This document shows positions 6,076 through 51,119 of a stretch of 64,000 bases of DNA, piece after piece. A model generated the notes under the pieces. It was not told the origin of the DNA. It saw only the letters and a list, made by a program, of their open reading frames with translations, and ran no database searches. Numbering within the stretch: the stretch's first letter is position 1; the number at the start of each line of letters is the position of its first letter. This DNA comes from Escherichia coli. GTDB taxonomy: Bacteria; Pseudomonadota; Gammaproteobacteria; Enterobacterales; Enterobacteriaceae. A program made the translations under genes and the position numbers. Location of the stretch: NCBI RefSeq assembly GCF_003790525.1, contig NZ_CP033635.1; one strand, 5' to 3'.

Positions 6076-6087
6076 GTCATAAATAAT

Positions 6088-6117
6088 AAAGCACCTTACA
6101 CGCAAGGTGCTTTATTC
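6088..6117. terminator. Bidirectional rho-independent terminator between convergent fadK and the SDR gene
   Basis: Hairpin aaagcacctt-acacgc-aaggtgcttt, flanked by an A-run upstream and T-rich sequence downstream. Confidence 0.55.
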
Positions 6118-20732: not shown

Positions 20733-20761
20733 AGAAAAAAGGCCGCAGAGCGGCCTTTTTA
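20733..20761 (-). terminator. ihfA rho-independent terminator (bidirectional hairpin)
   Basis: aaaaaaggccgc-aga-gcggccttttt: GC stem flanked by A and T runs, 12 bp after the ihfA stop. Confidence 0.6.
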
Positions 20762-37705: not shown

Positions 37706-38509
37706 TTATGCTGGCAACGGTCCGTTTTGTATAGGGACCGTTGCCTTACTTTTTAAATGTTCCATCGCGGCGATGCATACTGACTCATATTGAAACAGAT
37801 CGTCAGCGAAAAAAATGGCCAACTTATCAATACATTCCTGGCTCAATGAATGTGCCTGTAGCGAGAAGCTTAAAACCTCATACCCGAGACGTTTTCTAAG
37901 TGAACTATCTGAAATACTCATAATATCTTCAAGCACACCATTTCCCATTCCCGGAAGATTTAGTGGATTAAAAAGAAGACTGATATTAAGCATTGATATT
38001 ATCGAAGGAAACTTTAGGAGACTCTCATTTTTTTGAATCGCAGCAAAAATGCTCCCGACAGGATGTATATAATTTTGTTCATAGTATATAGTCCTTAAAT
38101 AGTGAATAACCAACCTGTTTTTTATATTGATCAAATTGGTCATTTTTTCTGGGCGAAATACAGAAGTGACATCCATTCCAATAAAATCTTTATTTATACC
38201 TCTTATCCGAATTTCACTACCATAAAGATTATTAATTATTACTCTATATTTAACATTGTCCTGCAGATATGTATCAAAACTAAGTGCTGGCGCTCCTGGC
38301 TTTGAGGCATCATAGTTAATGTTAGACATATAGGCAATCATATAATTAAAGTTTGATTCTGCTATTTCATCGCAGTCACATTGACCCGTTGATATAAAGA
38401 AAGTGAGTGCTGTCATAGTAGACTGCAGCCTTTCTTTAAAAGAGTCGAAAGCCAGGCTTTTAATATTTAAATCACCATAATTACTCTGTATTAAGTTTGT
38501 AGAAAGCAT
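37706..38509 (-). CDS. ydjO: Uncharacterized protein YdjO (AT-rich gene)
   Basis: Track ORF 271 aa; trimmed to the second Met (MLSTNLIQSNYGDLNIK...) for 267 aa. About 35% GC. Confidence 0.8.
   Translation of the reverse strand: MLSTNLIQSNYGDLNIKSLAFDSFKERLQSTMTALTFFISTGQCDCDEIAESNFNYMIAYMSNINYDASKPGAPALSFDTYLQDNVKYRVIINNLYGSEIRIRGINKDFIGMDVTSVFRPEKMTNLINIKNRLVIHYLRTIYYEQNYIHPVGSIFAAIQKNESLLKFPSIISMLNISLLFNPLNLPGMGNGVLEDIMSISDSSLRKRLGYEVLSFSLQAHSLSQECIDKLAIFFADDLFQYESVCIAAMEHLKSKATVPIQNGPLPA
37712..37750 (+). terminator. tcyP (ydjN) terminator hairpin
   Basis: ggcaacggtcc-gttttgtatag-ggaccgttgcc followed by ttacttttt; it lies inside the 3' coding end of the convergent ydjO. Confidence 0.5.
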
Positions 38510-38797
38510 CTCCCGCCTCATATTGTTAACAAAATTATTATCTCATTTAAATCTAAGTCATTTACAATATAAGTTTAAGAGCGACGCCACAGGATGAACT
38601 ATCAAAAATAGCTCATCATGATTAGCAAAACTTAACCATTTTAAAATAAATAAACAATTAAAGAAAAAAGTTCACTTATTTATAGCAATAGATCGTCAAA
38701 GGCAGCTTTTTGTTACAGGTGGTTTGAATGAATGTAGCAATGAAATACAAAATTTCAGGCCATGTAACTCCCGGCAAAACCGGGAGGTACGTAATCT

Positions 38798-39040
38798 TTA
38801 CTCAGTCACTTCCCCTTCCTGGCGGATCTGATTTGCCCAACGCTGGGCGGATTCAGGCACAGTAAACGCCGGTGAGCGCATAAATGACTCCCCCATCAGT
38901 ACAAACGCAACATATTTGCCACGCAGCATCCAGACATCACGAAACGAATCCATCTTTATCGCATGTTCTGGCGGCGCGGGTTCCGTGCGTGGGATATAGC
39001 TAATAATCTGGCGGTTTTGCTGACGGAGCGGTTTCTTCAT
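38798..39040 (-). CDS. cedA: Cell-division modulator CedA
   Basis: Track ORF trimmed to MKKPLRQQNRQIISYIPRTEPAPPEHAIKMDSFRDVWMLRGKYVAFVLMGESF..., 80 aa. Confidence 0.88.
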   Translation of the reverse strand: MKKPLRQQNRQIISYIPRTEPAPPEHAIKMDSFRDVWMLRGKYVAFVLMGESFMRSPAFTVPESAQRWANQIRQEGEVTE

Positions 39041-39243
39041 TACTGGCTTCACTAAACGCATATTAAAAATCAGAAAAACTGTAGTTTAGCCGATTTAGCC
39101 CCTGTACGTCCCGCTTTGCGTGTATTTCATAACACCGTTTCCAGAATAGTTTCCGAAGCGGGATCTGGCTGGTGGTCTATAGTTAGAGGGTTTTTTGACC
39201 AAAACAGCGGCCCTTTCAGTAATAATTTAAGGAGACGAGTTCA

Positions 39244-41505
39244 ATGTCGCAACATAACGAAAAGAACCCACATCAGCACCAGTCACCACTACACGATTCC
39301 AGCGAAGCGAAACCGGGGATGGACTCACTGGCACCTGAAGACGGATCTCATCGTCCAGCGGCTGAACCAACACCGCCTGGTGCACAACCTACCGCCCCAG
39401 GGAGCCTGAAAGCCCCTGATACGCGTAACGAAAAACTTAATTCTCTGGAAGACGTACGCAAAGGCAGTGAAAATTATGCGCTGACCACTAATCAGGGCGT
39501 GCGCATCGCCGACGATCAAAACTCACTGCGTGGCGGTAGCCGTGGTCCAACGCTGCTGGAAGATTTTATTCTGCGCGAGAAAATCACCCACTTTGACCAT
39601 GAGCGCATCCCGGAACGTATTGTTCATGCACGTGGATCAGCCGCTCACGGTTATTTCCAGCCATATAAAAGCTTAAGCGATATTACCAAAGCGGATTTCC
39701 TCTCAGATCCGAACAAAATCACCCCAGTATTTGTACGTTTCTCTACCGTTCAGGGTGGTGCTGGCTCTGCCGATACCGTGCGTGATATCCGTGGCTTTGC
39801 CACCAAGTTCTATACCGAAGAGGGTATTTTTGACCTTGTTGGCAATAACACGCCAATCTTCTTTATCCAGGATGCGCATAAATTCCCTGATTTTGTGCAT
39901 GCGGTAAAACCAGAACCACACTGGGCAATCCCGCAGGGGCAAAGCGCTCACGACACCTTCTGGGATTATGTTTCCCTGCAACCGGAAACACTGCACAACG
40001 TAATGTGGGCGATGTCGGATCGTGGTATCCCGCGCAGCTACCGCACTATGGAAGGCTTTGGTATTCATACCTTCCGTCTGATTAACGCCGAAGGTAAAGC
40101 GACGTTCGTACGTTTCCACTGGAAACCACTGGCAGGTAAAGCCTCACTCGTTTGGGATGAAGCACAAAAACTAACCGGACGTGACCCGGACTTCCACCGC
40201 CGCGAGTTGTGGGAAGCGATTGAAGCCGGCGATTTTCCGGAATACGAACTGGGCTTCCAGTTGATTCCTGAGGAAGATGAATTTAAGTTCGACTTCGACC
40301 TTCTTGATCCAACTAAACTTATCCCGGAAGAACTGGTGCCCGTTCAGCGTGTCGGCAAAATGGTGCTCAATCGCAATCCGGATAACTTCTTTGCCGAAAA
40401 CGAACAAGCAGCATTCCATCCAGGTCATATTGTTCCTGGTCTGGACTTCACCAACGATCCGCTGTTGCAGGGGCGTTTGTTCTCTTATACCGATACACAA
40501 ATCAGTCGTCTTGGCGGACCAAATTTCCATGAGATTCCGATTAACCGCCCGACCTGCCCTTACCATAATTTCCAGCGTGACGGCATGCATCGTATGGGGA
40601 TCGACACTAACCCGGCGAATTATGAACCGAACTCGATCAACGATAACTGGCCGCGCGAAACACCGCCGGGGCCGAAACGCGGCGGTTTTGAATCATACCA
40701 GGAGCGCGTGGAAGGCAATAAAGTTCGCGAGCGCAGCCCATCGTTTGGCGAATATTATTCCCATCCGCGTCTGTTCTGGCTAAGTCAGACGCCATTCGAG
40801 CAGCGCCATATTGTCGATGGTTTCAGTTTTGAGTTAAGCAAAGTAGTTCGTCCGTATATTCGTGAGCGCGTTGTTGACCAGCTGGCACATATTGATCTCA
40901 CTCTGGCCCAGGCGGTGGCGAAAAATCTCGGTATCGAGCTGACGGACGACCAGCTGAATATCACCCCGCCTCCGGACGTCAACGGTCTGAAAAAGGATCC
41001 ATCCTTAAGTTTGTACGCCATTCCTGACGGTGATGTGAAAGGTCGCGTGGTAGCGATTTTACTTAATGATGAAGTGAGATCGGCAGACCTTCTGGCCATT
41101 CTCAAGGCGCTGAAGGCCAAAGGCGTTCATGCCAAACTGCTCTACTCCCGAATGGGTGAAGTGACTGCGGATGACGGTACGGTGCTGCCTATAGCCGCTA
41201 CATTTGCCGGAGCGCCTTCGCTGACGGTCGATGCGGTTATTGTCCCTTGCGGCAATATCGCGGATATCGCTGACAACGGCGATGCCAACTACTACCTGAT
41301 GGAAGCCTACAAACACCTTAAACCGATTGCGCTGGCAGGAGACGCGCGCAAGTTTAAAGTAAGAATCAAGGTCGCTGATCAGGGTGAAGAAGGGATTGTG
41401 GAAGCTGACAGCGCCGATGGTAGTTTTATGGATGAACTGTTAACGCTGATGGCAGCACACCGCGTGTGGTCACGCATTCCTAAGATTGACAAAATTCCGG
41501 CGTAA
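39244..41505 (+). CDS. katE: Catalase HPII
   Basis: 753-aa ORF ([36 protein letters not shown]...) with large-subunit catalase core motifs (RERIPERVVHARG-like, ..FDHERIPER..). Confidence 0.97.
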
Positions 41506-50790: not shown

Positions 50791-51119
50791 ATTCTATATC
50801 CTTCCTTTCAGTTATTTATTACGGCTTTCTTAAGTAGCGTGCCGTGTTGACGAGATTAACTTTACTGACTTTAGCGTCAATTAATCAGAGCAACGGTAAA
50901 ACAATGAAAGTGTAAAAAACACTTTTTCGCCAATTATGGAGAAAAAAAGAAAATTTGATGGAGAGTAATGAGAGAATATTACAACACGATGATTTTGCAG
51001 AGATTATGAAGAACTATACCGGATGACTGGTGATAAATAAAGCAAATAACCAGGATTAATCTGTATTAATTTATAAGAAAGTAACTTAATACCCGCAGAA
51101 TGATTTCTGCGGGTAAGTA

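Follow-up and report, generated by a model that had tools for sequence, protein, structure and literature searches.

The orphan gene ydjO in this stretch of Escherichia coli DNA (the window, 64,000 nucleotides, a 100% match to strain SMS-3-5 in which gene identities agree with the RefSeq annotation) probably arrived in an insertion, confined to Escherichia, whose own edge hairpins replaced a terminator shared by its convergent neighbours, with the end of the ydjO coding sequence being dictated by one of these RNA elements. An AT-rich insertion of 1.09 kb (approximately 37703-38818) would have come to lie between the core genes tcyP and cedA, where a GC-rich hairpin with a U-rich tail at its left edge would now set the 3' end of the tcyP mRNA and a second hairpin at its right edge would end the cedA mRNA. 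It would have brought ydjO together with an AT-rich promoter region that is bound by H-NS, and ydjO transcripts would largely be stopped by Rho inside the ORF, within ~490 nt. Since the ORF runs through the tcyP terminator in the complementary sense, an RNA element of the opposite strand would dictate its last 13-16 codons. The anatomy of the hairpin, the mapped 3' ends, the ancestral state and the persistence of the hairpin without coding are direct results; the involvement of H-NS and Rho is taken from the literature. The features of the locus are as follows.

36311..37702, + strand, tcyP (ydjN), cystine/sulfocysteine:cation symporter, a core gene (463-aa ORF; RefSeq)
37706..38509, - strand, ydjO, orphan ORF of 267 aa (RefSeq annotation)
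37713..37754, + strand, tcyP terminator hairpin and tail (fold; published K-12 3' ends)
37797..37805, + strand, left copy of the 9-bp direct repeat AGATCGTCA
38000..38045, - strand, Rho termination region inside ydjO, approximate position (K-12 1812645 = window 38022)
38510..38761, no strand assigned, AT-rich ydjO-cedA spacer (~31% GC), published 'promoter island' bound by H-NS (composition; PMC3661553 Table 1)
38534..38561, - strand, ydjO sigma-70 promoter ATGACT-16-AATAAT (consensus scan; same hexamers in PMC3946193)
38690..38698, + strand, right copy of the 9-bp direct repeat AGATCGTCA
38762..38787, - strand, cedA terminator at the right edge of the island, stem CTCCCGG/CCGGGAG at 38769-38787 (fold and TRS)
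38798..39061, - strand, cedA (ORF and RefSeq)
from 39244, katE (RefSeq annotation)

Window positions were converted to K-12 numbering by adding 1774623, a conversion verified on the tcyP and cedA stops. The sequence-only reading had described the segment from ydjO to cedA as AT-rich, and the composition bears this out: GC content is 34.3% in the island (37703-38797), 35.1% in ydjO and 30.8% in the ydjO-cedA spacer, against 53.1% in tcyP and 51.5% in cedA. The ~34% GC of the island lies below the comparison range of 49-53%, as is expected of acquired DNA. TcyP itself retains 90-97% amino acid identity over the Enterobacteriaceae loci. The stop codons of the two convergent genes, said to be 3 bp apart, can be read directly at 37700-37702 (TAA, tcyP) and 37706-37708 (TTA on the + strand, TAA on the - strand, ydjO). 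A longer ydjO ORF begins at an ATG at 38521, the RefSeq start being 38509.

The tcyP hairpin and the mapped RNA ends

The stem begins 10 nt past the tcyP stop, and its arms, GGCAACGGTCC (37713-37723) and GGACCGTTGCC (37735-37745), form 11 of 11 perfect pairs, 8 of them G-C, around a loop of 11 nt, the kind of stable GC-rich stem-loop expected of an intrinsic terminator. In the tail that follows (TTACTTTTT / UUACUUUUU, 37746-37754), 7 of the 9 bases are U, although the tract is interrupted. That an 11-bp stem lies in the 3' coding end of ydjO had also been proposed; the hairpin does occupy codons -2 to -13 counted from the ydjO stop and the U-tract extends to codon -16, with the stop lying 4 nt past the stem and the last 13-16 codons within the tcyP terminator. 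A simple terminator scan of 36000-39400 gave no match here because its loop limit was 8 and the loop of the hairpin is larger.

Folding of the tcyP-strand RNA gave -23 kcal/mol (z = -3.9), and only 1 of 200 shuffles was as stable. Markov simulations predict 0.1 perfect inverted repeats of this kind (stem of 11 bp or more, loop of up to 12 nt) for the 64-kb window, which has them at only 5 loci. The element does not resemble a REP/BIME-type repeat, a 90-nt query being found at a median of 1 and a maximum of 2 places per genome, and an Rfam scan returned only a sub-threshold chance match to a snoRNA. That the palindrome is a functionless product of chance has the general possibility alone in its favor, and it is contradicted by the fold statistics, the rarity of such repeats, the RNA ends mapped at the hairpin and its conservation in Escherichia albertii, where the surrounding island is only ~50% identical; its probability is judged negligible.

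Published data place the tcyP mRNA end at this hairpin, as the sequence-only reading had predicted; ends lying elsewhere would have spoken against it. The Term-seq tables for K-12 give position 1812373 (+) as an RNA end of the category 'primary tcyP, antisense ydjO', with the same sequence (PMC7815308 supp. 1) and in the M63-glucose sheet only, and TRS, in which RNAtag-seq data were analysed, lists tcyP primary termini at 1812375/6 at the same hairpin, with a hairpin energy of -22.4 kcal/mol and 5 U in the tail (PMC10687069). These ends correspond to window positions 37750 (Term-seq, +5 from the stem) and 37752/3 (TRS, +7/+8), compared with the ~7-9 nt past the stem expected of ends formed in vivo. 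The supplements of TERMITe have no entry for the locus.

The mapped ends also admit a reading in which the hairpin is a 3' stem-loop that blocks exonucleases, and transcripts that terminate beyond it, perhaps through Rho acting in the untranslated antisense of ydjO, are shortened as far as the hairpin. It would suit such trimming that the Term-seq end, at +5, falls short of the usual +7 to +9 and that the U-tract has an interruption in E. coli and is poor in E. albertii; a passage of Adams et al. describes Rho-terminated transcripts as typically processed by exonucleases, and tcyP read-through would run into AT-rich antisense RNA of ydjO. The TRS termini at +7/+8, in contrast, fit intrinsic termination, as do the predicted stability of the hairpin, the 5 U counted by TRS and the 7 U among the 9 tail bases, and PMC7815308 supp. 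2 lists no Rho region on the + strand downstream of tcyP, only one early in tcyP. Trimming is considered unlikely. Termination of tcyP is probably intrinsic rather than a result of processing, which falls short of proof because the U-tract is interrupted and the E. albertii tail is poor.

The hairpin might instead be a bidirectional terminator, or the terminator of ydjO itself. It is located at the 3' end of ydjO, and the stem of the window allele pairs fully in the RNA of either strand (-21.8 and -20.0 kcal/mol). However, it lies inside the ydjO ORF and not past its stop, and the tail in the ydjO sense, AGCAUAAGAAUUAACGG, has a U-tail score of 0.13, compared with 2.84 for the tcyP-sense tail, 0.7-1.2 in E. 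albertii and 5.4 for the ancestral terminator described below; at this score ydjO would have no intrinsic terminator of its own. An A-tract upstream of the stem is absent on the tcyP strand, where the sequence is UUCUUAUGCU, and the layout of a bidirectional terminator (A-tract, hairpin and U-tract on both strands) is not seen at this hairpin. In the majority E. coli allele, further, one pair becomes a C·A mismatch in ydjO-sense RNA, and neither the Term-seq (PMC7815308) nor the TRS (PMC10687069) tables contain a 3' end for ydjO, the ends at the hairpin being on the + strand only. A role of the hairpin in ending ydjO transcripts is most improbable.

At the other edge of the island, TRS places the cedA primary terminus at K-12 1813385 (-), past the hairpin CCUCCCGGUUUUGCCGGGAG (PMC10687069), which corresponds to window position 38762, 7 nt beyond the stem at 38769-38787.

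Ancestral arrangement and distribution of the insertion

Of 5426 complete E. coli genomes, 4297 carry ydjO and the hairpin and 1124 (21%) lack them; the gene is not fixed in the species, an amendment to the earlier picture. In the 1124 genomes without ydjO the gap between tcyP and cedA is 46 bp and holds a canonical terminator, AAACGCCTGTC-atccc-GACAGGTGTTTTTTT. Island-free strains include CFT073, ATCC 25922 and APEC O2-211, which we take to belong to phylogroup B2. A CedA scan of one genome per species gave 45 loci, in which tcyP and cedA are directly convergent in E. whittamii, three further Escherichia lineages, Citrobacter, Salmonella, Enterobacter, Kluyvera and others, and the loci of this short form have a single hairpin with an A-tract on one side and a T-tract on the other. 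Because this layout is common to relatives outside the island-bearing Escherichia, the short form is taken as ancestral and the 1.09-kb segment as inserted. From these comparisons, the segment appears to be an insertion that displaced the ancestral bidirectional tcyP/cedA terminator. The claim that the hairpin is the tcyP terminator accordingly holds for its function as a mapped end, but the element is not ancestral and belongs to the inserted segment.

The right junction of the island lies inside cedA, of which the last 6 codons (38798-38818) are haplotype-specific: CedA ends in ..QEGEV(T/A)E in all island-bearing haplotypes (..QEGEVTE in the window) and in ..QENEVEE or similar in all island-free ones. 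YdjO homologs were found on neither phages nor true plasmids, and a search of 5.8 billion proteins and 1.84 billion cluster representatives gave none outside Escherichia, one artefact aside. This artefact, a protein of 299 aa with 25% identity (P0030) that HMMER had presented as a distant homolog, proved to be an A/G-swapped E. coli ydjO: it differs by 255 A>G and 146 G>A changes on one strand with hardly any other change, and occurs on a single 2-kb Logan contig. AT-richness and a patchy distribution are thus both seen for ydjO, and the island is missing from the non-Escherichia relatives.

An ortholog of ydjO was found at the same site in E. albertii, where it is split by an IS1 with a 9-bp target duplication; without the IS it encodes 244 aa with 35% identity over the full length. 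The locus was found through the exact CedA sequence, a query with the N-terminal fragment having given only a 79-aa fragment. Nucleotide identity between the two species is ~50% in the island and ~85% in the flanks. The hairpin is the best-conserved stretch adjoining tcyP; it keeps 11 pairs in E. albertii, and its 3' arm, GGGCCGTTGCC, is identical.

The island is borne by E. coli other than the CFT073 type, by Escherichia sp. MOD1-EC7003 and by E. albertii, and is missing from CFT073-type E. coli, E. whittamii and other clades, and ydjO has diverged ~50x as much as tcyP at non-synonymous sites. These observations allow a broader joint reading, 'terminator capture' with old cross-species haplotypes. 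The island would carry the only terminators of both neighbours at its edges, and its clean loss would be costly because the shared terminator has been replaced and the sole terminators now sit on the island edges; the near-silent ydjO would thereby be retained, with its 3' end frozen by the RNA of its neighbour. The two haplotypes would be old, shared across species and kept or exchanged by recombination. Taken as a whole, this combination is regarded as rather doubtful.

Hairpin or peptide as the constrained layer

The sequence-only reading held that the C-terminus of ydjO is constrained by an RNA structure of the opposite strand, and comparison of orthologs and alleles agrees with it, the hairpin being kept where coding is lost. 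In B and AH04 strains a TG>CA change in the loop creates a stop codon and leaves the stem intact, YdjO of the B strains lacking its last 7 residues. In O157:H7 the frameshifted ydjO ORF ends in the A-tract just before the hairpin, with the whole tail lost and the stem kept. An 893-bp deletion between the AGATCGTCA copies has removed most of ydjO from Escherichia sp. MOD1-EC7003, where both edge hairpins are retained, and E. albertii retains the hairpin despite its IS1-broken ydjO. Orthologs ending before the hairpin had been named as evidence that would count against the claim. Such alleles do exist (O157:H7; in B the end falls inside the hairpin), but they refute nothing and rather strengthen it, because they are derived truncations that keep the hairpin. 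The truncated and disrupted alleles may nonetheless be too recent for retention of the hairpin to be telling.

Changes within the stem lean in the same direction. The majority E. coli allele has G at 37737 (A37737G), which pairs as U·G in tcyP-sense RNA and leaves C·A in the RNA of the other strand; the A of the window strain makes a U-A Watson-Crick pair, together with an Ala-to-Val change in YdjO. The two informative stem changes in E. albertii have the same outcome, a G·U wobble in the tcyP sense and C·A in the ydjO sense, and one stem pair occurs as U-A, U·G and C-G. Hairpin energies for the tcyP and the opposite strand are -21.2 and -14.9 kcal/mol in the majority allele, -21.8 and -20.0 in the window and -19.0 and -12.7 in E. 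albertii. Of five informative stem transitions, four keep pairing on the tcyP strand only (one-sided p ~0.19), and a rare allele, ETEC6335, goes in the opposite direction, with pairing broken on the tcyP strand. Among the 7 distinct sequences the covariation count was not significant, shuffles giving a similar result (367/500), and no pair differed from its commonest form in both partners. The wobble asymmetry toward the tcyP strand is suggestive only.

It could be argued that the inverted repeat is kept for the peptide that it encodes (A-T-x-P ... G-P-L-P), with the RNA hairpin incidental; ydjO is under some purifying selection (dN/dS of 0.1-0.4), and its C-terminal half is the more conserved among E. 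coli alleles. The loss of the last 7 residues in B strains and of the whole tail in O157:H7, with the stem kept in both, argues against this, as does the Ala-to-Val change of the window strain, which restores a Watson-Crick pair. Between E. coli and E. albertii the YdjO tails differ past the loop because a 3-nt loop indel shifts the frame (..PIQNGPLPA / ..KATVPIQNGPLPA versus ..RGNEPSRLY / ..RATARGNEPSRLY), while the stem pairs are kept. The last 13 residues of YdjO are modelled as a low-confidence coil by AF2, a disorder that is merely suggestive because the model is weak. Selection for the peptide is very unlikely. The hairpin, under selection as tcyP-sense RNA, is probably the constrained layer and the YdjO tail a by-product, presumably dispensable.

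The ydjO orphan, its silencing and related systems

No profile in Pfam, NCBIfam, PADLOC or PHROGs matched YdjO, and no fold match was found for its AF2 model, which has a mean pLDDT of 59 and an alpha/beta domain at residues 21-140 with pLDDT 70-86. Kinship with YahL and YjfZ, proteins of similar length, was considered and rejected (E = 0.32 and 2.1). Among E. coli alleles dN/dS of ydjO is 0.1-0.4, and the C-terminal half is more conserved than the N-terminal half. One allele (L004) is a recombinant mosaic, as judged from a dS of 0.78 in its N-terminal half and near-identity in its C-terminal half. Between E. coli and E. albertii the values are dN 0.66, dS 1.5 and dN/dS 0.43 for ydjO and dN 0.013, dS 0.72 and dN/dS 0.018 for tcyP. 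Inactivations of ydjO comprise the O157:H7 frameshift, multiple stops in UTAK-12 and IS1 in several strains. Judging by these substitution patterns, ydjO appears to be a real gene, a weakly constrained and fast-evolving orphan.

The proposal that the segment was acquired and is bound by H-NS agrees with published data. ydjO is called foreign by two prediction methods, and the ydjO/cedA promoter island is H-NS-bound ('K' code) in the Kahramanoglou and Oshima data sets (PMC3661553 Table 1), the coordinate match to this island being only approximate because the paper uses older K-12 numbering. Genomic SELEX sets an H-NS flag on the ydjO promoter ATGACT-16-AATAAT (PMC3946193), the hexamers of which are found at window 38561..38534. 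Within ydjO a Rho region has been reported with a Rho score of 4.36 (p = 4.9e-5; PMC7815308 supp. 2), reads falling from 83 to 10 in untreated cells and from 80 to 42 with bicyclomycin (PMC7815308).

The locus shares features with several known systems. Like H-NS/Rho-silenced xenogeneic genes and 'promoter islands' (PMC3661553), ydjO has 34% GC, a narrow taxonomic range, numerous promoter-like sites, bound H-NS and a Rho termination region within its ORF; unlike them, it has no mobility genes, phage or plasmid homolog or identifiable donor, and it is under weak purifying selection rather than in pure decay. YahL, YdjO and YjfZ have been described as 'conserved signature proteins' of E. coli (PMC11057252). 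The lack of a homolog outside Escherichia is shared with that description, but YdjO is neither E. coli/Shigella-specific, given the 35% identical E. albertii ortholog, nor conserved, with 21% of genomes lacking it. With the terminators that lie in the coding ends of convergent genes (the Term-seq 'primary and antisense' class, for which Adams et al. give 12 ends in one category count) the tcyP hairpin shares its structure, its U-rich tail and ends at +5 to +8. It departs from that class in its interrupted U-tract, in overlapping a silenced orphan, and in its origin, since it arrived with, or arose in, an inserted segment and is not the ancestral terminator.

Another relevant class corresponds to the ancestral state of the locus, as seen in B2 E. 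coli, other Escherichia, Citrobacter, Enterobacter and others, namely bidirectional intrinsic terminators; ydjO-bearing genomes instead have two one-directional hairpins 1 kb apart. Such terminators between convergent genes were reportedly described by Ju et al. in 2019.

The exact tcyP site is already known from two published 3'-end maps, and it has likewise been published that ydjO is an orphan of foreign origin bound by H-NS. No description was found of how two one-directional terminators took the place of the ancestral bidirectional one, of an ortholog in E. albertii, of the lack of ydjO in ~21% of E. coli genomes or of the pattern of hairpin retention. These elements add evolutionary detail and not a new kind of mechanism, and current views on termination and H-NS silencing are unchanged.

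For users of E. coli data, ydjO is a poor universal marker of the species because about one-fifth of complete genomes are without it. Non-stranded RNA-seq would assign reads from the tcyP 3'-UTR to ydjO, a possible reason why ydjN and ydjO have been reported as co-regulated in serum, and a clean deletion of ydjO would take away the tcyP terminator. The locus offers a clear example of a coding-sequence end dictated by an RNA signal of the opposite strand, and an example of an inserted gene replacing and taking over the terminators of its neighbours.

Deletion and IS1 insertion in the ydjO segment

The AT-rich segment carrying ydjO contains two copies of the 9-bp direct repeat AGATCGTCA, its only occurrences in the window (0.35 expected), and IS1 elements were found to have inserted into the segment repeatedly (search matches H11, H13, and H20; retrieved loci L011 and L059). 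The features concerned are as follows:

37797-37805 and 38690-38698 (window): the two copies of the 9-bp direct repeat AGATCGTCA
L011, about 1461-2174 (PK5074): IS1 in the terminator U-tract, directly 3' of the stem
L059, 4880-5647 (E. albertii TW07627): IS1 within ydjO

In Escherichia sp. MOD1-EC7003 (L013 3790-3900), an 893-bp deletion has its crossover point at AGATCGTCA; it removes the ydjO promoter and most of the ORF and spares both terminator hairpins, those of tcyP and cedA. The IS1 of PK5074 is associated with a rearrangement that brings yqcG/queE beside tcyP, and the element within ydjO of E. albertii TW07627 is accompanied by a 9-bp target duplication, GGAACACCG. In the latter strain (L059 1-4264), the chb/ydjC (chitobiose) genes adjoin cedA at the place occupied by katE in E. 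coli, and the catalase HPII gene is absent from this cedA-adjacent position.

A mosaic ydjO allele and a spurious homolog

One E. coli allele of ydjO differs markedly from the common ones:

L004, 3001-3804 (GCA_025283635.1, E. coli): ydjO allele encoding protein P0005

Its N-terminal 170 codons are very divergent (dS 0.78, ~78% nucleotide identity), whereas its C-terminal third, together with the hairpin and promoter, is near-identical to the common alleles. The L004 allele is thus a recombinant mosaic, the donor being a divergent Escherichia. This allele also bears on the start codon of ydjO. The longest ORF begins at the ATG at 38521 (271 amino acids) and the RefSeq form at the ATG at 38509 (267 amino acids); because only the second of these positions is shared with L004, the sequence comparison favours the shorter form.

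A 25%-identity ydjO "homolog" from the protein representative library, P0030, was rejected as an artefact. It derives from L058, a contig of a public assembly (Logan SRR33321306) in which A is swapped for G, and G for A, on one strand of an E. coli ydjO/cedA stretch, with 255 A>G changes, 146 G>A changes, and hardly any others.

Transcription of tcyP and other inverted repeats

A Rho termination region has been mapped ~45 nt into the tcyP ORF (K-12 position 1810978, + strand; window ~36355; Rho score 3.3; PMC7815308, supplement 2), which may point to attenuation or early termination at the beginning of the gene. Both ydjN (tcyP) and ydjO are listed as regulated in a table of serum-responsive genes obtained for an ExPEC O78 strain by non-stranded TruSeq RNA-seq (PMC4145685). 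Given the silencing of ydjO and its overlap with the tcyP 3' UTR, the ydjO signal may reflect spill-over of tcyP reads rather than regulation of ydjO.

Perfect inverted repeats in which a stem of 11 bp or more encloses a short loop occur at four other loci in the window; these are probably terminators or REP-like elements:

6085-6116: inverted repeat
20736-20760: inverted repeat
51090-51115: inverted repeat
62614-62642: inverted repeat

ydjO as a marker of E. coli

Searches of 5426 complete E. coli genomes found ydjO (window 37706-38509) to be missing in 1124, among them CFT073 and ATCC 25922. In E. albertii, by contrast, there is a divergent ortholog of the gene. As a marker, ydjO is thus not universal, and at the level of the protein family it is not strictly specific either.
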